Shown one piece after another: positions 3,455-49,167 of a DNA stretch of 64,000 nucleotides. The DNA comes from Nitrospina sp. (GTDB lineage Bacteria > Nitrospinota > Nitrospinia > Nitrospinales > VA-1). The stretch is from assembly GCA_018653085.1 (NCBI GenBank), contig JABIAY010000057.1:3198-67197 (forward strand), read 5' to 3'. Numbering within the stretch: the first letter of the stretch is position 1; each line of letters opens with the position of its first letter. The translations under genes were made by a program, and so were the position numbers. A model generated the notes under the pieces. That model saw only the letters and a list, made by a program, of their open reading frames with translations, searched no databases and was not told the DNA's origin.

Positions 3455-3556
3455 GCCACCACTAGGCGTGGGGCCGATGTGCAATCGCTTTTTTTTGCTA
3501 GCGACCGGTTAGCTCGGTTTAATCAACATTGTACAGTTCCCCCCTGATAAGGGGGG
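3455..3556 (+). repeat. Intergenic repeat, family 1 copy (CCACCACTAGGCGTGGGGCC... module) plus a CCCCCCTGATAAGGGGGG palindrome
   Basis: This copy aligns by eye with 27311-27412 and with the 98-bp units at 37876-38169. The palindrome at 3539-3556 recurs at 46634-46649. Confidence 0.8.
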
Positions 3557-3558: not shown

Positions 3559-3590
3559 AGACTTTCCAGATTCTGGAGAGTCTTTTTTTT
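3559..3590 (+). terminator. Rho-independent terminator after the Rieske/cyt b/octahaem operon
   Basis: The hairpin AGACTTTCCAGA-t-TCTGGAGAGTCT is followed by T8. Confidence 0.75.
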
Positions 3591-8921: not shown

Positions 8922-11762
8922 ATGAACGATTCAAATAAAGAAGAACCGGTTGCTCCTGACCCGACTGATGGTAGCGAATCAGATCAGGGTGACGGAATGG
9001 GTGAAATCGTCAATGAGTTCCTGGTCGAAAGCTATGAAAACCTGGACCAGTTGGACCAAGATCTGGTTGATTTGGAGCAGGACCCTGGTGACATAAACAT
9101 TCTCTCCAGCATTTTCAGGACCATCCATACCATAAAAGGCACCTGTGGCTTCATCGGTTTCAACAAACTGGAATCTGTGGCGCATATTGGTGAAAACCTG
9201 TTGGGGAAGTTGCGGGATGGCGAACTGAAATTGAGTCCCGCCCGAACCAGTGCTCTTCTGGCTATGGTGGATGCCATTCGTCAGATGCTTTCCTGCATCG
9301 AAAATGATCAAAATGAAGGCAGTGTGGATTATTCCGGTCTGGTTGAAACTTTGACCCGGTTGCAAACGGATGATGGAGCGGCCGAGGCAGTTCCCCCTGT
9401 TGCGGAAACGAAGGAAGAAGTTGCTGTCGAAACGAAACAGGAAGAACCGGCTCCTGAACCTGTCAAGCCTTCTGCTGAAATTGACGAGGATATGGAACCT
9501 ATCGTCAACGAGTTTCTGGTAGAGAGTTATGAGAATCTGGATCGCCTTGATAAAGACCTCATTGAACTGGAGCAGGACCCCGGCAATACAGAAATCCTTT
9601 CCAGCATTTTCAGGACCATCCATACCATAAAAGGTACCTGCGGTTTTATTGGCTTGCACAAACTGGAAAGAGTTGCCCATGTTGGAGAAAACCTGTTGGG
9701 TAAACTTCGGGATGGTGATCTGGCTTTGAATCCTCCAAGAACCAGTGCCCTGTTGGCAATGGTGGATGCTATCCGGCAAATGCTGGACTGTATTGAGAAG
9801 GATCGTGACGAAGGGGATGTGGACTATTCAAAACTGGTGGATACCCTGGGTAAACTGCTGACCGATGCAGGTTGTGCCGAAGTGGCAACTTCCGCACCTG
9901 CTTCCAAGCCTGCGGAAGAGAAAAAAGAAGAGCCCAAAAAATTCGTTGCCGCAGAGGATAAAAAGGATCGCAGGAAGGCTCCTTCGGCGGAAGAGGCAGA
10001 ACATATAGCCAAGAATGGAGACAAACGCGCTACTACAGACCGGCGTAAAGAAACCCGGGGTGTGGCGGATTCCAGCATTCGTGTGGATGTGGATATCCTC
10101 GATCGGCTGATGAATCTTGTTGGGGAACTGGTTCTGGCTAGAAACCAGATACTGCAATATGCTCCCGCCAAGAGCGACTCTTCGTTTATTGCAACCAGCC
10201 AGCATTTGAACCTGGTTACTACGGAATTGCAGGAAGGTGTCATGAAAACCCGGATGCAACCCATTGGCAATATCTGGAGCAAGTTTCCCCGTGTTGTTCG
10301 GGATCTTTCCATGGCCGTTGGTAAAAAGATTCGCCTGGAGATGGAAGGCAAGGAGACGGAACTGGACAAGACGCTGATCGAAGCGATCAAAGATCCTCTG
10401 ACACATATTGTCAGGAACTCCTGCGACCATGGAATAGAATCTCCCGAAAAACGTTTGGAAAATGGCAAGGATGAAGAGGGTGTTTTGTTATTGCGCGCTT
10501 TCCACGAGGGAGGACAGGTCAATATTGAGATCATTGATGATGGTGGCGGGATTGATCCTGAGAAAATTAAAAAGATAGCTCTTAGTAAAAATGTTATCAC
10601 GCAGGAACAGGCGGACAGAATGGGTGATCAGGAACTGGTCAACCTTATTTTTGCCGCCGGATTTTCTACTGCCGAAAAGGTGACCAATGTGTCCGGACGG
10701 GGCGTGGGCATGGATGTGGTTCGTACCAATATTGAGAAAATTGGTGGAACCGTAGTTATTAATAGCTTTCCCGGAAAAGGCACGACCTTGCGAGTCAAGA
10801 TTCCTCTTACTCTGGCAATCATTCCGGCTCTGATTATCACCACTGCCGGGGAACGTTACGCCATTCCGCAGGTGAACCTGCTTGAACTGGTTCGTCTTGA
10901 CGGGGAGGAGGCCAAGAAGTCTGTTGAACAGATTCAGGGTGCTCCGGTTTATCGCTTGCGCGGTAACCTGCTTCCTTTGGTTTCCCTCAATGATGCGTTG
11001 AAGATAGAAGAGGAAGAAGAAAGCGAGGCTATTAATATCGTTGTTCTGCATGCAGACGACCGCCAGTTTGGTCTGGTGGTTGAAGGAATCAGCGATACCG
11101 AGGAAATTGTGGTCAAGCCGCTGAGTAAACAGCTCAAAGGTATCTCCGCATTTTCAGGGGCAACCATAATGGGGGATGGAAAACTGGCATTGATTCTAGA
11201 TGTCATGGGGCTTGCCCAAAAATCCAGCGTTATTTCCGGTCATCAGGATAAGAGTCTCGCCAAAGCGGCATCAGCCCAGGGAGACGCAGGTGATCGTCAA
11301 ACCCTGCTCATCTTTGGTCTGGAGGCAGATGATCGCATGGCGATACCGTTGTCTGAGGTTGCACGTCTGGAAGAATTTAAACGCTCAGAAGTTGAGCAAT
11401 CGGGTGAACAGGATGTGGTGCAGTATCGTGGAGAAATTATGCCTCTGGTTTACCTTAAAAAGGTTCTGCATGGAGATTCCCAGCAGGAAGATTCCCCACA
11501 GGAAGATGCTGATACGGAATTGATGCAGTCTATTGTTTTCACCAAGGATGGCAGGAGCGTTGGGCTGGTCGTTGAGCGCATCGTCGATATTGTGGAAGAA
11601 TCGGTAACGGTTAAACGCGGGGCCAACCGCCCTGGGGTACTGGGAACCATTGTTGTGCAAGATCGGGTGACCGACCTTCTTGACATTGAAAGTGTGGTTG
11701 CATCTGCCGACCCTAGTTTCCTGGTTGATACACAAAGTGTTGCATTATTAGAGGAGGCTTGA
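8922..11762 (+). CDS. cheA: Chemotaxis histidine kinase CheA with two Hpt (P1) domains and two C-terminal CheW-like domains
   Basis: Two near-identical Hpt domains each carry FRTIHTIKGTCGF. They are followed by a dimerisation region, an HATPase_c domain (DDGGGID, GRGVGMD) and two CheW-like modules (ERYAIPQVNLLELV... and DRMAIPLSEVARLEEF...). Confidence 0.95.
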   Translation: MNDSNKEEPVAPDPTDGSESDQGDGMGEIVNEFLVESYENLDQLDQDLVDLEQDPGDINILSSIFRTIHTIKGTCGFIGFNKLESVAHIGENLLGKLRDGELKLSPARTSALLAMVDAIRQMLSCIENDQNEGSVDYSGLVETLTRLQTDDGAAEAVPPVAETKEEVAVETKQEEPAPEPVKPSAEIDEDMEPIVNEFLVESYENLDRLDKDLIELEQDPGNTEILSSIFRTIHTIKGTCGFIGLHKLERVAHVGENLLGKLRDGDLALNPPRTSALLAMVDAIRQMLDCIEKDRDEGDVDYSKLVDTLGKLLTDAGCAEVATSAPASKPAEEKKEEPKKFVAAEDKKDRRKAPSAEEAEHIAKNGDKRATTDRRKETRGVADSSIRVDVDILDRLMNLVGELVLARNQILQYAPAKSDSSFIATSQHLNLVTTELQEGVMKTRMQPIGNIWSKFPRVVRDLSMAVGKKIRLEMEGKETELDKTLIEAIKDPLTHIVRNSCDHGIESPEKRLENGKDEEGVLLLRAFHEGGQVNIEIIDDGGGIDPEKIKKIALSKNVITQEQADRMGDQELVNLIFAAGFSTAEKVTNVSGRGVGMDVVRTNIEKIGGTVVINSFPGKGTTLRVKIPLTLAIIPALIITTAGERYAIPQVNLLELVRLDGEEAKKSVEQIQGAPVYRLRGNLLPLVSLNDALKIEEEEESEAINIVVLHADDRQFGLVVEGISDTEEIVVKPLSKQLKGISAFSGATIMGDGKLALILDVMGLAQKSSVISGHQDKSLAKAASAQGDAGDRQTLLIFGLEADDRMAIPLSEVARLEEFKRSEVEQSGEQDVVQYRGEIMPLVYLKKVLHGDSQQEDSPQEDADTELMQSIVFTKDGRSVGLVVERIVDIVEESVTVKRGANRPGVLGTIVVQDRVTDLLDIESVVASADPSFLVDTQSVALLEEA

Positions 11763-18095: not shown

Positions 18096-18321
18096 CGATG
18101 TTCCTCACATAATTCAGCTTATGTATTTCTTATCGTTTTCTTAAAAAAAAATCTTTATTTTTTTACAGGAAACGACCTGAAAAACCGTGTTTTATTGAAA
18201 AATTGAGGCTTATCCCCCACGTTTGTGGTGTTTACTTTACATTTAAAAATAATGTAATATTTAGTGGAGAGTGAGAGCTATGGACCGAAGACTGATTTAC
18301 CAGGGAAGGATGGTGTACCCA

Positions 18322-18693
18322 ATGCCAACGGTTCAACGAAAAATACTGATGGTTGACGATGAGGTTAAGGCCTGTCAGCTGTTCTCAAGGTTCCTGTCCA
18401 ATCAGGGGTTTGCAGTTCAAACCGCATCGGATGGGAAAATGGCCCTGACCAAGCTTGATGAATTCCAACCAGACTGTATTTTACTGGATGTGCGGATGCC
18501 CCATGGCGGACTGGAGTTGTTGTCCTCTTGTAGAAAAAAATTGCCGGATGCCATCATCATCATGGTTTCCGCGATTATTGAGCCTGGTCAGGTGGGAGAC
18601 TATTTGGCTGAAGGTGCTTATGCCTGCATTGAAAAACCCGTAGACATGAACATCCTTCTGGAAAAGATTGAGCAGGCCTTGAACCACCACTAG
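18322..18693 (+). CDS. Stand-alone response-regulator receiver protein
   Basis: It has a receiver domain (KILMVDDE, DCILLDVRMP, IIIMVSA, CIEKP). The start is uncertain (18271, 18280, 18310 or 18322). The stop codon is part of the repeat motif CACCACTAG. Confidence 0.85.
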   Translation: MPTVQRKILMVDDEVKACQLFSRFLSNQGFAVQTASDGKMALTKLDEFQPDCILLDVRMPHGGLELLSSCRKKLPDAIIIMVSAIIEPGQVGDYLAEGAYACIEKPVDMNILLEKIEQALNHH

Positions 18694-18800
18694 CCAGCGT
18701 GACGCTGGACCCCATGAGCAATGGCTTTTTATTGCTAGCAATGAGTTTCTCGGCTTAAAAAGTTCTTGCCCAGTAGCCTCCCCCGCCAAGGGGGTCAGGC
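18685..18800 (+). repeat. Intergenic repeat, family 1 variant, filling the whole convergent gap
   Basis: CACCACTAG-CCAGCGTGACGCTGG-...ATGAGCAATGGCTT...TCTCGGCTTAAAAAG...CCTCCCCCGCCAAGGGGG aligns module by module with the 98-bp unit at 37876. Confidence 0.75.
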
Positions 18801-24626: not shown

Positions 24627-27320
24627 ATGAGCAAAGCTAAATCCCTCTACCTGATAGACGGTTCTTCCTACATTTTTCGTGCCTATTATGGTATCCGGCA
24701 GTTTTTGACGACATCAAAAGGATTTCCCACCAATGCTCTGTACGGGTTCATCAATATGTTGCAGAAAGTGGTGAAAGACGAAAAGCCGGATTATCTGGTA
24801 GTGACTTTCGACAGTAAGGAAAAGACTTTTCGCCACGAGATATATGCCGATTACAAAGCCAACAGGGAGGTGCCTCCTGAAGACCTGGCAAAACAATTCC
24901 CCTATTTTGAGCCACTGGTACAGGCCTTTAATATTCACAGCGTCCGGGTTCCAGGTTTTGAAGCCGACGATATCATGGGAACCCTGGCTAAAAAAGGTGC
25001 AGAAGAAGGGTTGCAGGTAGTCATAGTCAGCGGCGATAAGGACATGATGCAGTTGGTCGGTCCAGATATACGCATGCTGGATACCATGAAAAACAAATGG
25101 TTTGATATGGAAGCTGTGGAGGAAAAGTTCGGCGTACCTCCACACCGGGTGATTGAGGTGATGGGTTTGATGGGCGATTCGAGCGATCATATCCCCGGTG
25201 TTAAAGGGGTAGGTCCTAAAACCGCCACGGAACTCATACGTAAATTCGGTTCGATAGAGGATTTGTATGAACGGATCGATGAAGTGGACAAACAAAAACT
25301 CAAGGAAAAGCTTGTTCAGGATAAGGAGATGGCGCTACTCAGTCGTCAACTGGTGACCATCAATACGTCTATGGAACTGGAATTTAAACTTGAAGATCTT
25401 AAGCTCAAGTCCCCTGACTATACGGAACTGAAAAAACTGTTTTCTGAATTTGAGTTTTCTTCCTTGCTCGGGGAACTGGAAGATAAGCCCACCTCCGCTA
25501 CAAGTTCACCTGCGATAGTAAGCCAGTATGAAACACTTCTCACCGAGGCCGATTTTGAGAGATGGCTCAAGCAATTAAAGAAGTCGAAAATTTTCGCACT
25601 GGATCTGGAAACCACGAGCTTGCACCCGGTTCAGGCGCAGGTGGTGGGAATTTCGTTTTGCTGTAAACAAGGAGTGGCCTGCTACATCCCGTTATCCCAC
25701 CGCTATCTGGGGGTTCCCGACCAGTTGAATCTCGACTGGGTTGTCCAGAAACTCAAACCACTGCTTGAGGACCCAAAAATTAAAAAAGTCGGACAGAATA
25801 TTAAATACGATTTGATTGTGTTGAGAAATGAAGGGATTAATCTCAAGGGCATTGCCTTCGATACCATGCTGGCTTCCTATATTTTGAATCCCTCAGGCAG
25901 GAGGCACAGTATGGACGCTTTGGCTCAGGATCATCTGGGCCACATGACCATCAAATATAAGGATGTGGTGGGCACTGCGTCCAAAGAGATTGGGTTTGAT
26001 GAAGTGGATGTTGAGCGCGCGACCGAATACGCGGCGGAAGACGCAGACATCACCTGGCGGCTCTACGAAAAACTTTCACCTCTTTTGCAAGGCGATGATC
26101 TTGAGCTTTTTCAGGATTTGGAACTACCGCTTTTAGAAGTCCTGGCAGAGATGGAAATCCATGGAATGAAACTGGATCAAAAACACCTGCAAAATCTTTC
26201 CAAGATCATAGAAGGAAAAATCGAAGAGCATACAAAGAAAATTCATTCCATAGCCGGTGAGGTGTTCAATATCAATTCCCCAAAACAACTTTCGGTAATT
26301 TTGTTTGAAAAACTGGGACTGCCGGTCATCAAGAAAACCAAGAGCGGCTACTCGACAGATGTCACCGTATTGGAACAATTGTCCGAGGAGCACGACCTTC
26401 CGGAAGTGGTATTGGCTTATCGGCAATTGGGCAAACTCAAGTCCACTTACGTGGATGCATTACAGGATGATATATTCCGTAAAACGGGCAGGGTCCACAC
26501 TTCGTTCAACCAGACTGTAGCGGCGACTGGACGGTTGAGTAGCAGTAACCCGAACCTGCAGAACATCCCGATCCGTACCGAAACGGGACGCGAAATTCGC
26601 AAAGCGTTTATAGCGGAAGAGAATAATTACCTGCTTTCAGCGGATTACTCTCAGGTGGAGTTACGGGTTCTCGCCCATCTTTCCGGTGATGAAGCTTTGG
26701 TTGAAGCGTTTCAGTTGGGTGAAGACATTCACACCCGTACCGCTTGCGAAATTTTTGGAACGACCGCAGATCGTCTGGATGCGGAATCCCGCAGAATGGC
26801 TAAAGCGGTGAACTTCGGTATCGTTTATGGCTTGAGTGCTTTTGGTCTCTCCCGGCAGTTGAAAATTTATCCTAAGGAAGCGAAAAAGTTCATCGATCAA
26901 TACTTTGCGCTATATAAAAAAGTCAAAATTTATATGGATGAGACTGTGGCCGAGGCCGAGAAATTGGGTTATACCCAGACTATGATGAATCGAAAACGCT
27001 ATATGCCAGACCTTAAAAGCCAGAACCGGCAAGTGAGGGAGGCGGCAGGAAGGGTTGCGATCAACTCCCCGGTGCAGGGAAGTGCGGCGGACCTGATTAA
27101 ACTGGCGATGATTCGATTGGCGCAACAGATCAGCAAGAAAAAACTAAAATCCCGAATGATCCTGCAAGTTCATGATGAACTGGTGTTTGAATGCCCACAA
27201 GAAGAAGAGCAGGAAATGCGGGCTCTGGTCAAAAAGGAAATGGAAGAAGTGTTTCCTCTTAAAGTTCCTTTGGTAGTGGATATGGGGTGGGGAAAAAACT
27301 GGAACACCGCCCACCACTAG
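24627..27320 (+). CDS. polA: DNA polymerase I
   Basis: It has a 5'-3' exonuclease domain (LIDGSSYIFRAYY), a 3'-5' exonuclease domain (FALDLETTSL), and polymerase motifs (DYSQVELRVLAH, RRMAKAVNFGIVYG, QVHDELVFE). The last codons CAC CAC TAG belong to the adjacent repeat. Confidence 0.97.
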   Translation: MSKAKSLYLIDGSSYIFRAYYGIRQFLTTSKGFPTNALYGFINMLQKVVKDEKPDYLVVTFDSKEKTFRHEIYADYKANREVPPEDLAKQFPYFEPLVQAFNIHSVRVPGFEADDIMGTLAKKGAEEGLQVVIVSGDKDMMQLVGPDIRMLDTMKNKWFDMEAVEEKFGVPPHRVIEVMGLMGDSSDHIPGVKGVGPKTATELIRKFGSIEDLYERIDEVDKQKLKEKLVQDKEMALLSRQLVTINTSMELEFKLEDLKLKSPDYTELKKLFSEFEFSSLLGELEDKPTSATSSPAIVSQYETLLTEADFERWLKQLKKSKIFALDLETTSLHPVQAQVVGISFCCKQGVACYIPLSHRYLGVPDQLNLDWVVQKLKPLLEDPKIKKVGQNIKYDLIVLRNEGINLKGIAFDTMLASYILNPSGRRHSMDALAQDHLGHMTIKYKDVVGTASKEIGFDEVDVERATEYAAEDADITWRLYEKLSPLLQGDDLELFQDLELPLLEVLAEMEIHGMKLDQKHLQNLSKIIEGKIEEHTKKIHSIAGEVFNINSPKQLSVILFEKLGLPVIKKTKSGYSTDVTVLEQLSEEHDLPEVVLAYRQLGKLKSTYVDALQDDIFRKTGRVHTSFNQTVAATGRLSSSNPNLQNIPIRTETGREIRKAFIAEENNYLLSADYSQVELRVLAHLSGDEALVEAFQLGEDIHTRTACEIFGTTADRLDAESRRMAKAVNFGIVYGLSAFGLSRQLKIYPKEAKKFIDQYFALYKKVKIYMDETVAEAEKLGYTQTMMNRKRYMPDLKSQNRQVREAAGRVAINSPVQGSAADLIKLAMIRLAQQISKKKLKSRMILQVHDELVFECPQEEEQEMRALVKKEMEEVFPLKVPLVVDMGWGKNWNTAHH

Positions 27321-27412
27321 GCGTGGGGCCAGTGTGCCATCGCTTTTTTGGGCGAGCAAAATGTTGTCTCGGCTTGAAGAATTATTGCTCACTGCCTCCC
27401 ACGCTAGTGGGT
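27311..27412 (+). repeat. Intergenic repeat, family 1 copy, overlapping the polA stop codon
   Basis: CCACCACTAGGCGTGGGGCCAGTGTGCCATCGCTTTTTTGGGCGAGCAAAATGTTGTCTCGGCTTGAAGAATTATTGCTCACTGCCTCCCACGCTAGTGGG is collinear with the 98-bp unit at 37876. Confidence 0.85.
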
Positions 27413-33922: not shown

Positions 33923-34083
33923 AAAAGTGCATGATCATTGTAGAATGATTGTAGCAGAATTTGGTGGGAGCAGAGAGCTTGCCTGATGAGTTTTCTCTTG
34001 CCGCGAGGGCAGACGGTTTGTTATGCCGAGAGAACATTTTCCAGCGGGGGTTCCCCGCTTGGTGGGAATGCAGGCATAAAAAA

Positions 34084-34112
34084 AGCCGGTAAGGCAATTT
34101 GCCCTACCGGCT
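34084..34112 (-). terminator. Bidirectional-type rho-independent terminator (copy 1)
   Basis: The hairpin AGCCGGTAAGGCA-attt-GCCCTACCGGCT is flanked by an A-run and a T-run. It is nearly identical to the hairpin at 35384-35410. Confidence 0.8.
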
Positions 34113-34146
34113 TTTTCCTCAGGTGAGGCTTAAAACTTTTTATTCT

Positions 34147-34602
34147 TTACTTGAGGTTCTGGTTCATGGTCGGGTGATCGATTTCGCAGTCACCTTGAGA
34201 AACCAGATTTTCCTGCATATAACCTTTGCGGTTCTGGTTCATCGCTTTGCGATACGCACCATCAGAGTTGTCGCCACGGCAGTCGCCTACTACGAGGCCA
34301 ACAACGCCACCAGCATCTTCAACGCTTTTCCATTGTTTCCAAGACTGCTCAGTCTGGGAAGAGCCGAACTGATAATTCTGCATTACACCAGAAATGCTTC
34401 GAGCATTTGCCGCTCTAGAACTCAGGTTGACCGCATTGGTCAAAGCTCTGTCTTTAGCGCCCATTTGCATCATGGTCTGACTTACACCAATACCGGCACC
34501 ATTTGATTGACCATAAGCTCCAGGAATTGTGTTGTCAGCACTAGCCAATGTTGCGAACCCTACGAATGCACTTACTGCTACGAACAAAATTGCTTTTTTC
34601 AT
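34147..34602 (-). CDS. Small secreted protein of unknown function, paralogue A
   Basis: It has a GGAGGAAG SD and the signal peptide MKKAILFVAVSAFVGFATLASA. A G/S/N/Q/A-rich N-half is followed by the conserved C-half QFGSSQTEQSWKQWKSVEDAGGVVGLV.GDCRGDNSDGAYRK.MNQNRKGYM...LVSQGDCE. Confidence 0.7.
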   Translation of the reverse strand: MKKAILFVAVSAFVGFATLASADNTIPGAYGQSNGAGIGVSQTMMQMGAKDRALTNAVNLSSRAANARSISGVMQNYQFGSSQTEQSWKQWKSVEDAGGVVGLVVGDCRGDNSDGAYRKAMNQNRKGYMQENLVSQGDCEIDHPTMNQNLK

Positions 34603-34869
34603 TACTTCCTCCCCTAAGGATGAAATTTGAAATAAAAACTTCCTGATTCTAACGATTTGTTTTTTGCCGGGGTATAGGGTAAACGCTGTTTTTTTGTGTG
34701 GGCGGTAGTCCTATGCGTTGCAGGGTTTGTTTTTAGTGTTGAGTTTTGCGGGAGTCTGAAAAAACAAGGTAGAGGAAAAATTCACAACGATATGATGTGC
34801 TTCGGTTAAGGGTTTTGCTTGAGAATATGTAGTCCTTATGCCTACGCGGTTTTGTTGGCGGTAGGGTGG

Positions 34870-35316
34870 TCAATCCGGGGAAGAAAACTCTATTCCCTGA
34901 AAGCCATAAGGTAGGTAAGAGGGATGGGGTAGCGAGAAGAAACCCCCATCGAAAGGCGGATTGAGTGCTTCTGCAATTACTTTTTTGTAATCATGCTGGC
35001 TTGCCTCGCAGGATCTGAAAAAACACCAGCGGAAATGGACAGGGCGGCTCTTATCTCTTTTGAGGAGGATGCCAAAAATGTCCTTCTCGTTGAAAAAAAA
35101 CTGCAAGCTGAATGCTTTGTGGTTGACCTGATAGGTCTTTCCTCTGGGGAGTTTCGAAATTTCCATGGGGTTGGGGACAGTTACTCCGGTTTGCGGGGAG
35201 GTTTTAAAAGAAACCCTTTCCATGGCCCATAAACAGGGTGGGGATAAGCTGAGCAAAACCGATAACAGATAAACTCTGAAGAATGTTTGCGCCGGAGGGA
35301 GGGGTTTTTTAGGCAT
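34870..35316 (-). CDS. Hypothetical secreted protein
   Basis: It has a hydrophobic N-terminal signal (FFRVYLLSVLLSLSPPCLWA) and no recognisable domain. It lies between the two paralogues. Confidence 0.45.
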   Translation of the reverse strand: MPKKPLPPAQTFFRVYLLSVLLSLSPPCLWAMERVSFKTSPQTGVTVPNPMEISKLPRGKTYQVNHKAFSLQFFFNEKDIFGILLKRDKSRPVHFRWCFFRSCEASQHDYKKVIAEALNPPFDGGFFSLPHPSYLPYGFQGIEFSSPD

Positions 35317-35383
35317 AGTGAGGAAACCAGAAAGGTTGTGACCTCGAATCTTAATCGAACCAAGAGCTGAAATGCAAAAAAAA

Positions 35384-35410
35384 GCCGGTAGGGCAATTTG
35401 CCCTACCGGC
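35384..35410 (-). terminator. Rho-independent terminator (copy 2)
   Basis: A perfect 11-bp stem (GCCGGTAGGGC-aattt-GCCCTACCGGC) is followed by T8 on the minus strand. Confidence 0.8.
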
Positions 35411-35455
35411 CTTTCCCTCTATAAAGAGGTGAAACTTAATTTTGCGATGAAGCGA

Positions 35456-35914
35456 TTATTTCAATGTGGGATGATATGCTTCGCAGTCACCTTGAGAAAC
35501 CAGTCTTTCCGCCATATAACCTTTGCGGTTCTGGTTCATCTGCTTGCGATAGGCACCATCAGAGTTGTCGCCACGACAGTCTCCCGGTACCAAGCCAACA
35601 ACACCACCTGCATCTTCAACACTTTTCCATTGTTTCCAAGACTGCTCAGTCTGGGAAGAGCCGAACTGGAAGTTGCCACCGGAAGCCCCTCCAGAGTAAT
35701 CAGATCTTGCATTACCGGCTCCAGAAGCCAGATTGACCGCGTTGGTCAGAGCTCTCGTGCTGGCTCCCATTGACATCATGGATTGGCTTACACCAATGCC
35801 GGCACCTAGTGTTGATGGAGTATAACCTCCTGGAACTGTCTCATCAGCACTGGCGCTCAATGCCGTGAACCCTAGAAATGCACTTACTGTTACGAACAAA
35901 ATTACCTTTTTCAT
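35456..35914 (-). CDS. Small secreted protein of unknown function, paralogue B
   Basis: The start at MKKVILFVTVSAFLGFTALSASA (ATG 35914, GGGGAGG SD) is preferred over 35965. The C-terminal half is nearly identical to paralogue A. Confidence 0.7.
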   Translation of the reverse strand: MKKVILFVTVSAFLGFTALSASADETVPGGYTPSTLGAGIGVSQSMMSMGASTRALTNAVNLASGAGNARSDYSGGASGGNFQFGSSQTEQSWKQWKSVEDAGGVVGLVPGDCRGDNSDGAYRKQMNQNRKGYMAERLVSQGDCEAYHPTLK

Positions 35915-36395
35915 TACACTTGCCTCCCCAACTGAGATTGGAAAAAAAACTATTAAACTAAACAAGCACTACCAAACAAAATGAATTGACCCCTGTAGGA
36001 GTCAACTGATTATCTTTTCAGGATACCCTACGCATAATGACCATTTATCCTACACCTAAAATAGGTGTAAACGGTCTGTGAATGTCAGAATCTATAACCT
36101 TACGGCCTGTTTGTCAATAAAAAATCGGCTCTTCCTGCAAACTGAATAAAACACAGGTCGAACAAATTTAAAAATGCCCGTTATTTTGTCAATAAACTAT
36201 TGAAAAAAAAGCATTTAATGACTTATATTTTTTCAGTTGTTGGCTTTTTGAAAAAATAGGGATTGTCTGTTTGGTTTGACGGGTTCGGTCTTGAAGGGAG
36301 GGTTTTCCCAAACAAGGGAAAACTGGATAAGTACTCTCAAATTCGTATAATGAAAAAGTGGCTGTGTGAATTACAAACAAACAAAATATATTTTC

Positions 36396-36779
36396 ATGTC
36401 TTCAAAAAAACTTTTTACTCTGGATGAAGCGAATTCCCTGATTCCCCAGTTGTTGAGTTGGGTTCCTGAAATTCAAAAGTTATCTGCTTCAATGAATCGA
36501 GACTTTCCTGATATCCGCAATGCTCGCGAAAAGGCCAAGTGGAACGGCGGAAGTGTTGAGGGGGTTGAGTACCTGAATGTGATCACGAAATATAATCACC
36601 TGACCCGGAAGATTGAATCTGCTGGTTGTGAGATCAAGGGGATTCGTGAGGGCCTGGTGGATTTCCCCTCTCTCCGGGAAGGTCGGGAAGTATATCTTTG
36701 CTGGAGAATGCCGGAAAAAGAGATCCGGTTCTGGCATGACCTTGATTCCGGTTTTGCCGGCCGCCAGCCCATTCACTAG
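36396..36779 (+). CDS. DUF2203-family protein
   Basis: The family patterns KLFTLDEANSLIPQL... and GLVDFPSLREGREVYLCWRMPEKEIRFWHDLDSGFAGRQPI are present. The last codons CAC TAG coincide with the start of the downstream repeat. Confidence 0.7.
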   Translation: MSSKKLFTLDEANSLIPQLLSWVPEIQKLSASMNRDFPDIRNAREKAKWNGGSVEGVEYLNVITKYNHLTRKIESAGCEIKGIREGLVDFPSLREGREVYLCWRMPEKEIRFWHDLDSGFAGRQPIH

Positions 36780-37055
36780 CCGTGAAGGCAGATAGCAATG
36801 GCTTGTTAAGCCGAGAAGAACGGTTGCTAGCCAATAAGCTATTGTTAATTATCAGCGGAGGTTCTCCGCCACTAGCCGCCGGGCCACGCCCGGTGGGAAC
36901 GGGTCAATGGCTTCTTGGGCTGAGAAGAACGGTTGCTAGCCAATAAAAGCTATTGCAGGTTGAGTCCAGCGTCACGCTGGCCAGCGGAGGTTCTCCGCCA
37001 CTAGCCGCCGGGCCACGCCCGGTGGGAGCGGGTCAATGGCTTGACGAGCCTTTGC
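36774..37055 (+). repeat. Composite intergenic repeat block (family 1 variants) filling the convergent gap
   Basis: The module CAGCGGAGGTTCTCCGCCACTAGCCGCCGGGCCACGCCCGGTGGGA.CGGGTCAATGGCTT occurs twice (starts 36853 and 36982). GAGAAGAACGGTTGCTAGCCAATAA occurs twice (36813 and 36922). The palindrome CCAGCGTCACGCTGG is also seen at 18695 (as CCAGCGTGACGCTGG) and at about 50772. Confidence 0.85.
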
Positions 37056-37871: not shown

Positions 37872-38176
37872 GTGAGAGGGCCACTCGGCGTGGGGCCAAT
37901 GAGCCATCGCTTAATCTGGCTGGCAAAGAGTTGTCTCGGCATAAAAAGTCTTTGCTCTCTGCCTCCCTCGCTAGAGGGCCACTCGGCGTGGGGCCAATGA
38001 GCCATCGCTTAATCTGGCTGGCAAAGAGTTGTCTCGGCATAAAAAGTCTTTGCTCTCTGCCTCCCTCGCTAGAGGGCCACTCGGCGTGGGGCCAATGAGT
38101 CATCGCTTAATCTGGCTGGCAATGAGTTGTCTCGGCTTGAAAAGTCCTTGCTCTCTGCTTCCCTCGCTAGAGGGCA
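37872..38176 (+). repeat. Tandem array of a 98-bp structured repeat (3 full units plus a partial unit)
   Basis: GAGGGCC starts at 37876, 37974, 38072 and 38170, an exact 98-bp period. Units 1 and 2 are identical, and unit 3 has several substitutions. The unit is homologous to the single copies at 27311, 18685 and 3455. Confidence 0.95.
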
Positions 38177-39203: not shown

Positions 39204-39282
39204 CGTCATCGCGAGTCGCGAAGCGGCGTGGCGACCCAGGTTTTCTGGATTGCTTCGTCACCGCTGGTTCCTCGCAATGACG
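39204..39282. repeat. Long imperfect hairpin repeat, family 2 (CGTCATCGCGAG...CTCGCAATGACG)
   Basis: The inverted termini enclose GCGAAGC...GCTTCG and CCAG-gtttt-CTGG. Related copies lie at 46665-46735 and 50724-50822. A CAGCGGAGGTACTCCGCC module follows at about 39379. Confidence 0.8.
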
Positions 39283-39342
39283 GGTTATGCAGAGGTCTCC
39301 TCGCATGGGAGATAGGTAATAATGGCTCGTTGAGCCGCGAGA

Positions 39343-42300
39343 ATGTTTGCTAGCGAGAGAAAGATATTGCAAGTTACCAGCGGAGGTACTCCGCCCCGAA
39401 TCTGGATTTTCCTGTTTTTCTTCGTTTCCGGCGCAACCGGGCTGATCTACGAAGTCGTGTGGACTCGTTTGCTCACTTTGGTGATGGGGAATACTCACTA
39501 TTCCATTGCCACCGTCCTGACTGCGTTCATGGGCGGACTTGCCCTGGGGAGCTATGCCGGGGGCAGGATGATCGACAGGAGGTTTTTAGCCCCCCTGACT
39601 GCCTACGCCTTTCTGGAACTGGGCATCGGTTTATATTGCCTGATCATTCCTGGGTTGATCGATTTTGCTTTCCCCGTATTCAAGTGGGTTTACCTCAACT
39701 GGGGAGATTCTTATACCCAGGCCAGCCTGATCCGCTTCTTCATTTGCGTGACCATCTTAATCATTCCCGCCACCTTCATGGGTGCGACCTTACCGGTGCT
39801 CAGCAAGTTTGTGTCCCGGGATGAAGCCCATATCGGGAAAGATGTGGGAACCTTGTATTCTATTAACACCTTTGGTGCGGTTTTTGGGGCCTGGGCTTCC
39901 GCGTTTGTGTTCATGCGGCTTTGGGGAGTCCAGTCCACGATCTGGATGACAGCCCTGTTGAACCTCGCCATTGCCGCAGTTATTTTCCTGGTATTCAAGT
40001 CCCCGGTGCAAGGCTCCACGACTCATGAGCCAAAGAGTTCCCCCCTTGATAACAGGGAAAAATTAATCCTCTTGAGTTTTGGGCTTTCGGGCATGGTAGC
40101 TCTGGTCTACCAGATCGCCTGGAACCGTATTTTGTCTCTTTTACTGGGTTCCTCCGTTTATGCCTTCAGCCTGATTCTGACCGTTTTTATATTGGGACTG
40201 GCATTGGGCACCGCCAGCTTTTCCAGGCTCCTGTCTAAATTTAGTAATTACATGAAGGTTTATGGTATAACTCAAATAATAATAGGAATATCTTCTCTTT
40301 TAATTATCCCATTGTTTGGCTCTATCCCTTTTGCCAACCGCTGGATTTATGAGAACTGGGGATTGCAATTTGAGTTCATTCAGCTGACGAATTTCCTGAT
40401 TATTTTTGCCCTGCTTTTCATCCCTACCTTTTTTATGGGAGCCCAGTTTCCATTGGTCATTAAACTGATGGCGCGAAAGTTGGAAACCCTGGGCAGTCAT
40501 GTGGGCCGGGTCTATGCCAGTAATACCATCGGTGCCATTATCGGATCCTTTATTGCGGGGTTCATCCTGATACCTGAATTGGGATTGCAGACCACTCTCA
40601 TAAGCGGGGTGTTTTCGAATGTTCTGCTGGGAACCGCGATACTCATGCTGGGGGCCCGGCTCAACCTTGGCGTGAAGATCTACGTTCTGCCGGTGTTTTT
40701 GATTTTTTGCGTATTTGCGGCAAAATCCATTGGGCCGTGGGACAAATCTGTGATTTCCAGTGGTTCCTTCATGCCTTACCGCATTGCGGACCTTAAAGCC
40801 GCTGAGCTGAAGAAAAATAAAATCCTTTTCTTTAAGGAGGGTATGCATACAACGGTGACCACCGAACTTTCTGTATCCGGGAATATTTTCCTGCGTGTGA
40901 ACGGAAAGACCGATGCCTCTCTGGCTCTTGATATGCGAACGCAATTGCTTTCCGGTTATCTTCCCATGTTGTTTCACCCTGATCCCAAATCCGTTCTGGT
41001 GGTCGGGCAGGGTAGTGGCATTACTTTGGGGGCAGTGGAACAGTTTCCGGCTAATGAGATCACGCTTGTTGAGATTTCTCCTGCAGTCATCGAGGGTTCC
41101 CGGTTTTTTGATCCCTTCAACCACCATGCGCTGGATGACGATAGAGTGACCCTGAAACTTGAGGATGGACGCAACCATATAGCCCTTTCTGAGAGCACCT
41201 ATGACGTAATCGTTTCGGAACCCTCTAATCCCTGGATTTCGGGGGTGGGGGCTTTATTTACCGTGAACTTTTTCGAATTGCTGAAAAAGCGGTTGAATCC
41301 GGGTGGGGTGGCCTGCATCTGGGTTCACACCAATATGTCGCCGGATAGCTTTAAGTCTATTGTCCGGTCTTTCAGTGAGGAGTTTCCCTTTGTGAGCATG
41401 TGGGAATCCATAGCGGGAGACGACTACCTGCTGATCGGGTCTGAGGAGGAATACGGCTTGTCCTATGAAAAAGCCCGGAAATACTTATCGGATGAAACAG
41501 TCGGGCGCGATTTGCACCGCATTGGCATCAATAATGTCCCGGACCTTTTGAGCTTGATGATCATGTCCCGGAAAAAGCTGTTGGAGTTCAGTGCTTCGGC
41601 TCCCCTGCATACTGACGATAACTCCTTGCTCGAGTTCAATGCCCCGGAATATGTTTATAAAGATGAACGTGCGGTTCTGGTCCGGCAGTTGACGCCTTTT
41701 ATCGAGATAGAGCCGGAGTTTGTCAGCTTTTCTGAAACCGATGGCGACATTCGTGAAAAGGTGATGGCGAAGCTCTTAAAGCTGCAACGATCAGAAAGCC
41801 AGATTGAAGATATCAAGAAGAAGGCCGAACTGGAGAGGCTTTTGGATCAGGCAGTAGAGGCGTTTAATGTCGGCGACATCAGCGGGGCCCTGCAAAGCTA
41901 CCAGAAGATCCTGATATTGGACCCGGAACATGTGATGACCTATTACAATATGGGTAATATTTTTCTTGAACTCAAGTTGACGGATCAGGCCGAGTCTGCT
42001 TACCAAAGTGCTCTTCAGGTCAACCCGTTTTATGTGTTTGGTTCCATAGGTCTGGCCAGGCTCCATGTGTTTTCCGGCCAGCCCGACAAGGCCATCAAGG
42101 TTTTACGTGATACGTTGAAGTGGTATGCAGGGGACCATGAAGTCAGCCTGTACCTTGGATTGGCGTATGCGTTTAAAAAGGATTCTGCAAGGGCCATTCA
42201 GGAGCTTAATAAATCATTGCAGTGGGACCCGGATTTTCCACCTGCGCACTATTACCTGGGGGTCCAGTATCAAACCCGGAGTCCAGCATTAGCCAAAAAA

Positions 42301-44464: not shown

Positions 44465-46654
44465 GTGACCGATATTTCCAACCGTTTGAAAAACGAGACC
44501 AGTCCTTATTTACTGCAACATGCCAGCAACCCGGTTGACTGGTACCCCTGGGGTGCGGAAGCCTTAAAAAAGGCCGAGACGGAAAACAAACCCATTTTTC
44601 TCAGCATTGGATACTCCGCTTGCCACTGGTGCCATGTCATGGCGCATGAATCCTTTGAAAATGCGGAAACCGCAAAAATCATGAATGAGAAGTTCATCAA
44701 CATCAAGGTGGACCGTGAGGAGAGGCCGGATGTGGACGCTGTATACATGAAAGCCCTGGTGACCTTGACCGGTCAGGGTGGCTGGCCGCTCAGTATGTTT
44801 CTTACTCCCGATCAGAAACCTTATTTGGGCGGAACCTATTTTCCTCTCTCTGCGAAATATAATCGTCCCGGATTTTCCGAGTTCATGCAACAGGCGCACG
44901 ACCTTTTCACCGGCAACAAAGATCAACTTGATGTCCGGTCGCAAAATATTCTACAAAAAATTTCCCAGCAAAACCGGGCAGGAAAAGCCAGAGATGTTCC
45001 GCATGACCAGTTGATTCAGGGAGCGGTGGAAATTTTGTCAGACAAGTTTGATGCGGATCATGGCGGATTCGGCTCAGGCATGAAATTTCCCGAACCCATG
45101 TACTACAATCTTCTCTTGCGGCATTGGGCCCAGACAGGGGAGGGCCTGGACATTCTTGACAAGAGTCTGACTGCCATGGCGGAAGGCGGATTGTTTGACC
45201 AGTTGGGCGGCGGGTTTCACCGCTACTCGACCGATCGCAAGTGGCGCGTTCCCCATTTCGAGAAAATGCTTTATGACAATGGACTTTTAGCGAAACTTTT
45301 TCTGGATATGTTTCAGGCCACCAAGCAGGACATTTATCAGGCCACTGCAAGAGAAACGTTCTCCTGGCTCTTGCGTGAAATGACTTCTGATGAAGGTGCG
45401 TTTTATGCCAGTCAGGACGCGGACTCGGAAGGCAAAGAAGGAACTTATTACACATGGGAACTGAAGGAGGTCATGGACCTGTTGGGACCCAAACACGCCA
45501 AGGTATTTGCCAGGGCTTATGGACTGGTTCCTCGTGGGCATATTGAGGGACGCAATGTTCTGCATATCAACGAGTCCGTAGAAAAACTGGCTGAAGCCGA
45601 AAACATTCCTATTTTTGAAGCCGATCATATTTTGAGAAAGGGAAGAGAAACCCTTTTGCAGGTCCGCGAAAAAAGACCCAAACCGGACCGCGATGAAAAA
45701 ATAATCACTGCCTGGAACGGACTCATGATCACAGCTCTGGCGCAGGGGGCTTCTGTGCTGGGGGACTCGAGCTATCTGGACTCCGCCACCCGGTGCGCTG
45801 ATTTCATCTGGTCCAAACAATGGGATTCTGAGAAATGCAAACTATTACGGGTTTATAAAGATGGGCAAAGCAAGATCAACGGCTGTCTGGATGATTACGC
45901 CTATTTTCTCGAAGCGTTGGTTGGGCTCTATGAAGCCGGGTTGGACAGCAAGTGGATCGTCCGAGCTAAAGAACTGGCCAACGCCATGATCGCAGAATTC
46001 TGGGATGAAGAGGAAGGCGGATTTTTTCTTTCCGGTCAGTCAGGGGAACCTTTGATCGTCAAACTGAAAAATCCTGCCGATGAGGCCCTGCCATCTGCCA
46101 ACGCAGTGGCGGCTCTGGCCCTGTTAAAACTGGGGCGACTCACAACAGAGGAAACCTATAGTCAAAAAACAGAACAAACCTTGCAAACCTTTCGTGCGGA
46201 CATGGAAAGAAGTCCGGCAGGGTTCACCGGACTTTTATCTGCAATGAGCGCGTTGAACCTGCCGCCTGCCGAAGTCGTGCTTGCCGGACCGAGGGATCAT
46301 TCTGCTTTCGATGAAATGTTAAAAGTCCTGCACACCGATTATCGTCCTAACAAGGTAGTCCTGTGGAATGATAACGAAACAACCCTGTTACCACTGGCCG
46401 AAGGCAGGACAGCGGAAAAGGGCGAGCCCACCGTTTATCTTTGCCAGAAGGGCACCTGTCACGCTCCGGTGCAAACCGGCACAGCCCTGAATAAACTTCT
46501 CGAAAGGCCGCAGGAGATTCGCCTGAATATTTTTGATGAAGACAAGAAGAATGCGCAGATCCTGGAACAGGAGCAAGCCAACTTCATGGGCGTGATGGGC
46601 AATATCTTCCAACAAGTCGGCATTCAAAAGCCTCCCCCTGATAAGGGGGACTGA
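44465..46654 (+). CDS. Thioredoxin-domain protein of the YyaL/DUF255 family (N-terminal Trx-like domain + (alpha/alpha)6 epimerase-like domain)
   Basis: [47 protein letters not shown] is the family signature. The start is GTG. The last 8 codons are encoded by a palindromic repeat. Confidence 0.9.
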
Positions 46655-46779
46655 GGGGGTTTGTCGTCTTTGCGAACGAAGTGAAGTAATCCAGAAAGTC
46701 TGGATCGCCGCGCCGCTTTGCGGCTCGCGATGACGTATCTGATGGGCTGGGGCGACTTATACCCCCGTTGCCTCCCGCG
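46631..46779. repeat. Repeat block: CCCCCTGATAAGGGGG palindrome, a family 2 hairpin, and a CCTCCCGCGCTAGCGGG end module
   Basis: The palindrome at 46634-46649 equals 3539-3556. CGTCTTTGCGAACGAAGTGAAGTAATCCAGAAAGTCTGGATCGCCGCGCCGCTTTGCGGCTCGCGATGACG is a family 2 copy. The block fills the convergent gap. Confidence 0.8.
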
Positions 46780-47919
46780 CTAGCGGGTAAAAATCCGTCT
46801 CTGCAAATAAATTTCGATGGTGTTTTTGGCGTTGCTGGCTACGGCGATATCGCTCATGCCACTATGGTTGTAATCGCCGCTGGTAATGGCTAGTACGGTG
46901 CCGCCTTCGATCACATAATCACGAGTGGGGTATTTGAAAGTTCCGCTGGCATTGCGGATAACAATCGAAAAAGTGCTGGACCTCGAATTAGCGACGGCGA
47001 CATCTTTCAACTTGTCTGGATTAAAATGCCCGGTGGTGAGAGCAAAGGGTCCGCCTCCGCCTGAAAAGGCGATGGGGTCTTGGAAACTGCCGTCCCCGTT
47101 TGAATAGAGCATATATAAATTGTCTCCCTTGCTCGAAGCAAAAACTAGATCGGTTTTGCCATCGTTATTCATGTCGCTGGCGGTCAGCGCGAGAGGTCCC
47201 AGATTTTCAGCCAGCCGTTTGGGTTGTTGAAAAGTCCCGTCGCCGTTTCCCATAAACAACCGAATGGAACTGGCACCGGAACTGTTGGTGGCCAGGGCAA
47301 TATCCAGGTGCTGGTCGGCATTAAAATCGCGGGTGACTCCGGAGAAGGACCGGGGGCCGGTCTGATAGGTGAGGCCTTTTTTAAAATAGCCATCTCCTGT
47401 ACCGATATACAATTCCATTTTGCCAAAGGTCAGGGTGACTGCGGCATCGAGTTTGTCATCGTGATTGTAGTCTCCCAGAATAATGTTTAACGGGACTCTT
47501 CCGGTTCGGGTGGGAATGGGTTTTCTGAAGCTTCCGTCACCGTTACCTGGGAGCACGACAAACATATCGGCACCACGGGCGTTGACCGCAAGATCAGGGT
47601 ATCCATCCCGGTTGATATCTCCCGTAGTCGACATGGTGGGCTCGGCGGCTACGTTTATATTCAAAGCCGAATGAAAACTGCCTTCGCCTTTACCGTAGAG
47701 GATGCTGAGCGTGCTGTTTTTAGTGTTGGCGGAAACCAGATCCGGCTCTCCATCGAGATTCAAATCAGTGGTGGATAAATGGGACGGGCCCTGACCCACT
47801 GGCATGACATCAAATTTGTAGAACAAATCCGGTGGGGGCTGGGGAAAGTCGCAGGCAGACAGAAGTGAAACGGCGCAGGATATCAGCGCACTCTTCCATG
47901 ATGGACATTTTAAGGGCAT
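46780..47919 (-). CDS. FG-GAP / VCBS-repeat lipoprotein
   Basis: It has a lipobox (LLSAC) and about seven repeats of the pattern D.N.DG..D..V.N..s....l..GnGDGsF. Confidence 0.8.
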   Translation of the reverse strand: MPLKCPSWKSALISCAVSLLSACDFPQPPPDLFYKFDVMPVGQGPSHLSTTDLNLDGEPDLVSANTKNSTLSILYGKGEGSFHSALNINVAAEPTMSTTGDINRDGYPDLAVNARGADMFVVLPGNGDGSFRKPIPTRTGRVPLNIILGDYNHDDKLDAAVTLTFGKMELYIGTGDGYFKKGLTYQTGPRSFSGVTRDFNADQHLDIALATNSSGASSIRLFMGNGDGTFQQPKRLAENLGPLALTASDMNNDGKTDLVFASSKGDNLYMLYSNGDGSFQDPIAFSGGGGPFALTTGHFNPDKLKDVAVANSRSSTFSIVIRNASGTFKYPTRDYVIEGGTVLAITSGDYNHSGMSDIAVASNAKNTIEIYLQRRIFTR

Positions 47920-48089
47920 TTGAAAATCTCTTGATTTTGTGACATGACTATGTAAAAATCTCTCTTTCGCCTAAAATCATTATATAACAGCGAATAAGTA
48001 ACCCCATTTAGTTTGCGCATTTTTGCGCATTTTAACCCCTCGCTCCAGATTAGATCTGGGGCTATTCTTAACCCATGAGGAGGTACGCA

Positions 48090-48482
48090 TTGCGATCTTA
48101 CCAGAGTGTCCTGATTCTTAAACCCGATATTGACGAAGCCCGTGCTGATGAGGCCCTTGAAAAAATAGGCGAGTTCATCAAGAGTAATGGCGGGGCCTGC
48201 CTTAAAATCGAAAAATGGGGCAAAAAACGTCTTGCCTATCGGATAAGAAAAAATAGATTCGGGATATACCTGAATATTTATCATACCCTTGACTCTGCTA
48301 ACGTCACTGATCTGGAAAGTAAATACCGGTTGTTTGATCTGGTCATCAAGTTCATGGTGCTCCGGTTGACAGATGGTGAGTTGGAGAGGGCGCTGGACAC
48401 TGAAACGGCAGAAGATGAAGAGGGTAAAGAAGGTGAAGAAGGTTCCGCAAAAGTCGCGGATAAAGAAGATAAAGACTCCTGA
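48090..48482 (+). CDS. rpsF: 30S ribosomal protein S6
   Basis: (M)RSYQSVLILKPDIDE...IEKWGKKRLAYRI matches S6. A TTG at 48090 six nt after the GAGGAGG SD gives the canonical MRxY N-terminus. The listed ATG at 48075 overlaps the SD. The C-terminal tail is acidic. Confidence 0.9.
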   Translation: MRSYQSVLILKPDIDEARADEALEKIGEFIKSNGGACLKIEKWGKKRLAYRIRKNRFGIYLNIYHTLDSANVTDLESKYRLFDLVIKFMVLRLTDGELERALDTETAEDEEGKEGEEGSAKVADKEDKDS

Positions 48483-48509
48483 TTAACCCAGAGACTGTAA
48501 GGATCTGAT

Positions 48510-48899: not shown

Positions 48900-48925
48900 T
48901 AAAATAATATAAGAAGAAGGTAATT

Positions 48926-49165: not shown

Positions 49166-49167
49166 TT

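Follow-up and report, generated by a model that had tools for sequence, protein, structure and literature searches.

Can one dispersed repeat supply the last codons of several unrelated genes, and if so, does it seek out stop codons, does it serve the mRNA, or do its own ends merely happen to read as His-TAG? The question is raised by a stretch of 64,000 nucleotides (nt) from Nitrospina sp. (contig JABIAY010000057.1 of assembly GCA_018653085.1, positions 3,198 to 67,197), which we call the window. Here the DNA polymerase I gene polA (24627-27320) ends GCC CAC CAC TAG, and its last His codon (27315-27317) and stop codon (27318-27320) lie within the head of a repeat, copy B. As a preliminary description of the sequence had stated, a receiver gene (18271-18693) ends AAC CAC CAC TAG and a DUF2203 gene (36366-36779) ends ATT CAC TAG. 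[quoted passage not shown]

The element was searched for in the window and in 110 loci of 8 kb each (L-numbered). These loci were obtained by scanning 185,579 species genomes with the pattern CCACTNGGCGTGGGGCC, which matched at least 110 loci, and element copies were called with an iterated nhmmer profile at a cut-off of E < 1e-3. Among the window genes, Pfam identifies DUF2203, Response_reg, a multihaem cytochrome and ribosomal protein L9. Empty and occupied sites can be compared with L037, a Nitrospina contig that is syntenic with window positions 44475-51856 at 83-91% identity. Another contig, L200, is 99.4% identical to the window and is unsuitable as a second relative for this purpose.

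Origin of the terminal histidines and stop codons

The preliminary description held that the element supplies the stop codon and the terminal His of three unrelated genes. Comparison with orthologues supports this: those that lack the element end one residue earlier, and they do not end in HH-TAG. For polA, six metagenomic orthologues (67-81% identity over the last 199 residues) end ...NW-N-(D/E)-A-H*, with TAG or TAA as the stop codon and without the element downstream. More distant orthologues end ...EAH* or otherwise, and HH* occurs in none of them.

For DUF2203, whose homologues are labelled Nitrospina or Nitrospinae, more than 100 orthologues end ...GRQPI*; every one sampled at 89% identity or below has this ending and a length of 126 amino acids (aa). 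The ending ...PIH* is confined to the protein of the window and the two relatives nearest to it (99% and 94% identity). At the DNA level, the empty sites (L191 and L192) read 'att TAG cc...', while among the occupied sites the window has 'att CAC TAG ccgtgaagg...' and L193-195 have 'atc CAC TAG ccgccgggcc...'.

The C-termini of the receiver orthologues form a series, from ...KL* or ...NL* through ...NH* to ...NHH*. In L196 the gene keeps its own TAA and the head follows immediately: AAC CTG TAA ACCACTAGCC, which can also be written AACC-TGTAA-ACCACTAG. Removing from L196 the 8 nt between its two AACC repeats gives the exact sequence of L197 (AAC CAC TAG, NH*), and removing TGTAA gives the exact window sequence (AAC CAC CAC TAG, NHH*). 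Judging from these alignments, the terminal His and the stop codon of polA, the receiver gene and the DUF2203 gene are derived from the element.

There is also a fourth donation, which the preliminary description did not contain. The 379-aa gene at 46780-47919 on the minus strand ends ...RIFTR*, its TAG lying in the loop of a tail hairpin; the loop gives this stop codon and the last two codons of the gene. The orthologue in L037 ends ...RVFK* with the stop codon TGA and has no element there.

Copies and structure of the element

The repeat family described earlier is real. The 17-mer CCACTAGGCGTGGGGCC, allowing up to three mismatches, occurs eight times in the window against 0.08 expected, and nhmmer calls ten non-overlapping copies. 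In total, the window contains about 12 copies at eight loci (Table 1), of which ten were found by repeat finding, blastn and nhmmer, and two, the composite and the partial copy D3, by reading the sequence. Copy B has the sequence CCACCACTAGGCGTGGGGCC...GCCTCCCACGCTAGTGGG.

Two details of the preliminary description need correction. It gave all five copies at gene ends the same orientation, but the DUF2203 copy lies on the minus strand (E = 3e-11, against 3e-3 on the plus strand); it resembles the others because the ends of the element are inverted repeats, with CACTAG at both. It also placed two heads shortly after a TAA stop, at about 3456 and at 50694. The first distance, 7 nt, is correct; the second is 3 nt and not 4.

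Table 1. Copies of the element and associated repeats in the window (window coordinates; nhmmer boundaries in parentheses)
Feature	Position	Strand	Remarks
Copy A	3456-3556 (3459-3553)	+	Extended head CCACCACTAG, 7 nt past TAA of multihaem cytochrome gene
Copy A, tail hairpin	3539-3556	+	CCCCCCT-GATA-AGGGGGG
Copy C	18685-18794 (18706-18793)	+	CAC CAC TAG at 18685-18693 ends receiver gene
Copy C, variant head hairpin	18694-18708	+	CCAGCG-TGA-CGCTGG
Copy C, tail hairpin	18780-18794	+	CCCCC-GCCAA-GGGGG
Copy B (polA)	27311-27411 (27314-27410)	+	E = 8e-24, model positions 1-97; extended head CCACCACTAG from 27311
Copy B, head hairpin	27314-27326	+	CCAC-TAGGC-GTGG; core follows
Copy B, tail hairpin	27398-27411	+	CCCAC-GCTA-GTGGG
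Copy D1	36771-36868 (36775-36850)	-	Reverse orientation, at DUF2203 gene end
Copy D1, tail hairpin	36769-36783	read on +	TTCAC-TAGCC-GTGAA; gives DUF2203 His codon and TAG
Copy D2	~36869-36981 (36898-36962)	-	Shares convergent spacer with a CAGCGGAGGTTCTCCGC module and D3
Copy D3, truncated	36998-37045	-	Read from sequence
Tandem array, three units	37881-38175 (37881-38173; locus 37875-38175)	+	Period 98 nt
Reverse copy	39297-39392 (39297-39375)	-	With CAGCGGAGGTACTCCGC module; adjoins family 2 repeat
Composite	46655-46787	+	Family 2 module and tail hairpin; fills convergent spacer
Composite, tail hairpin	46774-46787	+	CCCGC-GCTA-GCGGG; loop TAG 46780-46782 on minus strand
Copy E	50694-50790 (50694-50740)	+	3 nt past TAA of rplI (ribosomal protein L9)
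Small hairpin modules	18694-18708, 36966-36980, 50776-50790; 36853-36869, 36982-36998, 39377-39393; 50880-50895		
Family 2 copy	39205-39295	-	
Family 2 copy	46660-46745	+	
Family 2 copy	50715-50835	+	

Each unit is about 98 nt long and consists of two short terminal hairpins, mutually inverted, around a conserved core of about 70 nt (consensus CCACTAGGCGTGGGGCCAATGAGCAATAGCTTTTTCTGGCGAGCAAAGAGTTTTCTCGGCTTAATGAGCCATTGCTCTTTGCCTCCCCTGCTAGGGGG). The head follows the pattern NNNC-T(A/C)G(G/C)C-GNNN and then GGCC, and the tail follows CCCNN-GCTA(A/G)-NNGGG. The terminal loops carry (C)TAG inward on their own strand after the CAC of the stem, and a gene whose last codon or two are overlapped by an end of the element is re-terminated inside the loop. 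Copy E combines a canonical head with a diverged core and the variant tail CCAGCG-TCA-CGCTGG.

Only the two terminal hairpins covary. From 34 aligned copies, RNAalifold recovers the 4-bp head hairpin alone; when covariation was tested on these copies with shuffles as the control, the structure of head and tail hairpins had 82.7% of its cells paired and double changes in 8 of 9 pairs, a score that none of 500 shuffles reached. Stem variants in the head include CCAC/GTGG, CTGC/GCAG, CAAC/GTTG, CTAC/GTAG and GCAC/GTGC, and those in the tail include CCCCT/AGGGG, CCCTC/GAGGG, CCCAC/GTGGG, CTCCT/AGGAG and CCAGCG/CGCTGG. The loops of the tail are mostly GNNA (GCTA, GATA, GCCA, GCAA). Those of the head are TAGGC in 36 copies, TCGGC in 30 and TGGGC in 5, so that barely half carry TAG and about 45% carry TCG.

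Other structures that we considered are not features of the family. Copy B alone folds as one long hairpin (-46 kcal/mol, z = -4.1), but across the aligned copies this hairpin has 66.3% of its cells paired, against 67.1% in shuffles, and no covariation. A central helix, GCGAGC...GTCTCGGC, does not rise above shuffles. As for an intrinsic terminator, no T run follows the tail hairpins and a terminator scan gave nothing above shuffles. A perfect consensus for a site of the integration host factor (IHF) type (AATCAAGCNCTTG) occurs in 4 of 123 copies at the same place, around model positions 62-75 (e.g. L092:2352-2461), and in most of the others it is lost through a deletion of one base. A search of the window against Rfam returned only a tRNA, and the best match to the element had E = 1.4 (E-value mode).

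The covarying hairpins and the mostly GNNA tail loops speak for a selected 3' untranslated region (UTR) module, the second of two explanations in the preliminary description: a hairpin in the footprint of the terminating ribosome that stabilises the mRNA 3' end or tunes termination, and that has been recruited repeatedly. The persistence of the family across many species fits this idea, and the REP literature favours an RNA role; E. coli REPs within 15 nt of a stop codon reportedly stall termination and tune expression, a finding attributed to Liang, Rudd and Deutscher (Mol Cell, 2015). In addition, a canonical intrinsic terminator (3560-3590, GACTTTCCAGATTCTGGAGAGTC and then T8) lies directly after copy A, so that copy A sits between the cytochrome stop codon and the real terminator and would be transcribed. 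The structure also provides points on the other side. Mismatches in the stems show no excess of G-U over A-C (5 versus 8), so that neither strand is marked as a functional RNA; the helices of the core and of the whole element lack covariation; in about 45% of the heads, TCG stands in for the loop TAG; and no Rfam family matches.

Some further repeats in the window were noted along the way. A segment of about 1.3 kb is duplicated within 34078-35965, giving paralogous open reading frames (ORFs) of about 150-170 aa at 34147-34602 (-) and 35456-35965 (-), each with its own copy of the canonical terminator AAAAAAAGCCGGTARGGCAATTTGCCCTACCGGC; Pfam gave no match to either ORF. There is an 81-nt tandem repeat at 57520-57681 inside the ORF 57000-57713 (-), and a 300-nt internal repeat of 76% identity at 9006-9800 inside the 946-aa ORF 8922-11762.

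Placement and turnover of the copies

A census of the copies shows that their position relative to genes is not random, in agreement with the non-random placement at gene ends that the preliminary description proposed. The 86 heads comprise 44 that face the 3' end of a gene, 30 that face a start, 7 that face another element and 5 with no called neighbour on the head side. Nearly all of the stop-facing heads (42/44) lie within -45 to +13 nt of the stop codon: the stop is the loop TAG in 15, it abuts the head exactly in 6, and in 8 the ORF reads on into the element as far as a stop at +20 or +26. For the start-facing heads, the start is 38-1114 nt away in most cases. The tails behave alike on the other strand, with 12 of 20 stop-facing tails within -25 to +16 nt and three using the tail-loop TAG. 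In the 52 co-directional spacers that hold a single element, the stop-side share of the residual spacer has a median of 0.01 (Kolmogorov-Smirnov test against a uniform distribution, p ~1e-17); it is below 0.1 in 35 of them and above 0.9 in 6.

The His-TAG ending is also found beyond the window. In other Nitrospinaceae genomes, 14 genes end in His-TAG within a head loop, four of them in HH* (CCACCACTAG subfamily). The ten that were checked all encode unrelated housekeeping domains: a TPP-dependent enzyme, RNase PH, two NADH-quinone oxidoreductase/antiporter subunits, a glycosyltransferase, NAD kinase, HisG, a GAF-SpoIIE phosphatase, an HTH-MBL protein and a phosphoglucomutase-like protein.

The element is not selective as to the kind of spacer. 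The occupied spacers are co-directional, convergent and divergent in numbers of 58, 19 and 18, against 317, 96 and 100 for all spacers in the same loci; the element neither prefers spacers that contain a 3' end nor avoids divergent promoter regions. Copies thus persist in every kind of intergenic spacer, hard against the stop of the neighbouring gene within it. In co-directional spacers, 40 copies are in sense orientation and 21 in antisense.

For the RNA module, this census cuts both ways. Heads at 0-13 nt from stops and the 40:21 sense bias are in its favour, but 19% of the occupied spacers (18/95) are divergent, which equals the background (100/513), one third of the co-directional copies are antisense, and at orthologous sites one copy has given way to another instead of being conserved (see below). 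Together with the TCG heads, the absence of strand asymmetry and the lack of a terminator, these observations leave the selected module unsupported in the form in which it was first proposed, and we regard it as doubtful, though the least improbable of the alternatives.

The other explanation in the preliminary description was that insertion is specific for CTAG or TAG. In its general form, a MITE of the IS630 or IS5 type would insert at CTAG, TAG or TAA, and stop codons would be the commonest tolerated targets. CTAG is indeed the rarest 4-bp palindrome in the window (41 occurrences, observed/expected 0.61), and 16 of the 41 lie within repeat copies (about 2% of the window). Moreover, six or seven heads abut TAA or TAG directly, and among the stops that adjoin a head, TAA and TAG predominate and TGA is rare. 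However, heads that do not face gene ends show no excess of stop-like triplets: one lies within 8 nt upstream in 9/29 (31%), against a background of 0.29 (29%), and abuts the head in 1/29 (3%), against 0.05 (5%). CTAG also lies inside the covarying hairpins and is therefore part of the element, not a duplicated target. Finally, no consistent direct repeats flank the copies, and the empty sites TAA|A, ATT|TAG, CAY|TAG and TTT|AAATGA have no common motif. Sequence-specific insertion is thus largely refuted, and we consider it very improbable.

The distribution of the family suggests a long history within one lineage. The nhmmer profile finds 123 copies in the window and loci, nearly all of the locus copies being in Nitrospina or Nitrospinaceae genomes; among the matches listed, most loci are from Nitrospina, Nitrospinaceae or Nitrospinota metagenome-assembled genomes. 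Scattered matches in other phyla are lone 17-mers with the rest of the element missing. The 34 full-length copies have a median pairwise identity of 62%, and for 27 of the 34 the nearest neighbour is in another genome, which points to an old and diverse cross-species family and not to a recent burst.

Comparison of related contigs shows that individual sites have gained and lost copies, multiplied them in tandem and exchanged them for others. The window spacer at 50116-50147 (33 nt) is empty, while L037 has an insertion of about 245 nt there, containing a reverse-oriented element; this insertion starts 1 nt past the TAA, and the downstream spacer is wholly retained. The spacer between DUF2203 and the convergent inositol monophosphatase gene measures 276 nt in the window and only 47 nt in one relative, and D2, the CAGCGGAGGTTCTCCGC module and D3 fill it. 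The tandem array, in the divergent spacer that separates the inositol monophosphatase gene from the FGE-sulfatase gene, has three units in the window and two in L201, a contig that is otherwise 99.7% identical, so that copy number is polymorphic at the strain level. At the rplI site, a CCAC/GTGG head lies 3 nt from the TAA in the window, whereas L037 has the head CTGC-TAGCC-GCAG 8 nt from the same TAA, followed by a different and shorter body. Similarly, the same position, after ...TTC TCC of an orthologous MBL-fold gene, is taken by one family member in L094 and by another in L067. In one case the element makes up a whole spacer: the stop of the convergent HDOD gene (TCA, 18795-18797) is 0 nt from the tail of copy C, so that the element is the entire convergent spacer.

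A further explanation is that insertion is physically coupled to gene ends and not to any sequence, for example through a single-stranded DNA transposase that uses DNA exposed past the stop when translation and transcription uncouple. Any REP-like element would then insert close to stops and in an orientation set by transcription. Such coupling would account for adjacency to real gene ends only, regardless of the stop codon or flanks, for three empty/filled boundaries within 1 nt of a stop, for the two subfamily members at 3 and 8 nt past the same rplI stop in two lineages, and for the moderate orientation bias. On the other hand, it is purely inferential, with no enzyme identified; divergent spacers are occupied at the background rate; and the micro-deletion series of the receiver gene explains the fusion without targeting. 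We consider coupling to gene ends improbable.

The element also takes part in mosaics with other small repeats. The small hairpin modules CCAGCG-TSA-CGCTGG, CAGCGGAGGTWCTCCGC and GTGCCCCGAAGGGGT replace heads or tails or are nested inside copies, in the manner of the bacterial interspersed mosaic elements (BIMEs); they recur in further Nitrospina loci (L040, L055, L075, L084 and L107). A second, unrelated repeat family of about 90-110 nt ('family 2'), which contains CTGGATCGCC(G/A)CGCCGCTTTGCGGCTCGCGA, adjoins copies of the first, and together they fill whole spacers. In L026, from a more distant Nitrospinota genome, head-only units lie at 2490-2516 and 4352-4379 after Dus-like and TatA-like genes, and both have the same 7-nt linker (TAG/TAA-CGGCGAA-CCACTNGGCGTGGGGCC). 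These units suggest that the small hairpin can exist as a singlet repeat.

Searches for the machinery of mobility were negative within their scope. No consistent direct repeats flank 37 full-length copies, and the empty/filled comparisons show no target-site duplication. For a REP-associated tyrosine transposase (RAYT), tblastn with a YafM query against the approximately 1.3 Mb of loci and window, a weak test, gave nothing better than E = 1; the weak matches are to an MBL hydrolase on the opposite strand. Nor did Pfam recognise anything in the duplicated ORFs at 34-36 kb. L026 has the sole pair of inward-facing heads found, 1.85 kb apart, and the DNA between them contains ordinary genes and no autonomous insertion sequence (IS).

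Interpretation and relation to known repeats

The reading that we prefer, a mobile palindromic repeat whose ends happen to encode stops, would work as follows. The element may enter or persist in any spacer, and copies that disrupt a promoter, a 5' UTR or a ribosome binding site would be lost. DNA adjacent to a stop is presumably the sole part of a compact spacer that is free of promoter and ribosome-binding-site function, and since background co-directional spacers have a median length of only 56 nt, little beyond the first nucleotides after a stop would remain tolerable. Small deletions could then close the remaining gap to the stop, as in the receiver series. An overlap with the last codon or two costs the gene one or two new residues, usually His, and the fusion would do no harm, since the gene meets an in-frame TAG in the loop after a single CAC codon or, in the other frames, stops at +20 or +26. 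Since re-termination takes place inside the loop, the His-TAG ends of polA, the receiver gene and the DUF2203 gene would be by-products of the terminal sequence. The element would then not be evidence of a dedicated termination module, and an added role as an mRNA 3' hairpin is possible.

Several points weigh against this interpretation. A simple argument from tolerance would predict a looser placement than the observed one within about 6 nt of stops, and the three empty/filled boundaries within 1 nt of a stop could reflect real targeting of gene ends. The covariation of the hairpins, the GNNA tail loops and the persistence across species suggest that the hairpins are under selection and that the element is perhaps not merely selfish. 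No transposase, parent IS or target-site duplication was identified in the window and loci, so that mobility is inferred from presence/absence differences only. Note also that the gene map of the census is a crude map of longest ORFs, and that the loci were ascertained through the head motif.

The element works like a repeat of the REP or MITE type. Di Nocera, De Gregorio and Rocco (2013; PMC3733652) found that in convergent spacers less than 20 bp separates REPs from the 3' end of either ORF, that those in co-directional spacers lie near the upstream ORF and at a variable distance from the downstream one, and that DNA polymerase I is among the REP-decorated proteins. Stop donation and stop-proximal placement are already described for REPs (PMC3733652). 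Like the GTAG/CGTC REPs, the Nitrospina repeats are short, GC-rich, multi-copy hairpin units, often in inverted pairs and clusters, that form lineage-restricted families close to ORF 3' ends, and their termini donate TAG stops and decorate protein C-termini. Their covarying stems of 4-5 bp stand at the lower limit of the REP range of 5-13 bp (PMC3733652). They differ in having no unpaired GTAG/CGTC tag, the TAG being in the loop (consensus head CCAC-TAGGC-GTGG-GGCC, tail GCCT-CCCCT-GCTA-AGGGG), in their shorter stems, in the conserved core of about 70 nt between the two hairpins, in not avoiding divergent spacers, and in their host, the phylum Nitrospinota not being among those reported.

Bacterial MITEs such as ERIC/IRU, Correia and Nezha have been reviewed by Delihas (2011; PMC3184786). 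The Nitrospina element resembles them in length (about 100 nt, within the 50-500 bp of MITEs), terminal inverted repeats and intergenic location, and in presence/absence differences between relatives, nesting, tandem amplification and altered gene ends. In contrast to MITEs, no target-site duplication or parent IS with the same ends was found for it in the window and loci, and its copies are old and diverse (median 62%) with terminal hairpins that covary.

Two other designs are similar in outline. REPINs, associated with Bertels and Rainey (2011), are said to be inverted REP doublets mobilised by RAYT transposases; like them, the element consists of two inverted REP-like hairpins as one unit of about 100 nt, and copy B forms one long hairpin, but the long hairpin is unsupported across the Nitrospina family. 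The BIME/RIP elements of E. coli are REP pairs flanking an IHF site. The arrangement of REP, conserved linker and inverted REP in about 100 bp and the mosaics with other small motifs are shared with them, but no more than 4 of 123 Nitrospina copies have a perfect IHF consensus and the sequences are unrelated. Because the element behaves like a REP but fails the tag test, and has the size, ends and polymorphism of a MITE, we class it as REP/MITE-like only and claim no membership of the GTAG/CGTC REPs or REPINs. No paper in the searched literature links Nitrospina to REP, RAYT or palindromic repeats, and with no Rfam match either, the family is apparently undescribed.

Nitrospinaceae are the main marine nitrite oxidisers, and the repeat with its companion modules forms a sizeable part of many spacers in the window and loci. 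It alters the annotated C-termini of housekeeping proteins, including Pol I, RNase PH, HisG, NAD kinase and NADH-quinone oxidoreductase subunits, and the polymorphism of tandem arrays between near-identical strains is a likely cause of contig breaks in metagenomes. More generally, the family extends the stop donation and stop proximity known from REPs to a new phylum and a different hairpin design. It also separates two explanations that are usually conflated, since the copies are adjacent to real gene ends and not to stop-like motifs, without avoiding divergent spacers. The question of why REP-like repeats hug stop codons is thereby sharpened, not answered. It is conceivable, if rather unlikely, that placement arises not from survivorship but from a process that senses genuine translation stops, either single-stranded DNA transposition at ribosome release or selection for a hairpin in the ribosome footprint. 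If this is true, Nitrospinaceae would be a natural test system, with hundreds of stop-abutting hairpins at graded offsets, and the reading would extend to REP-like repeats generally.

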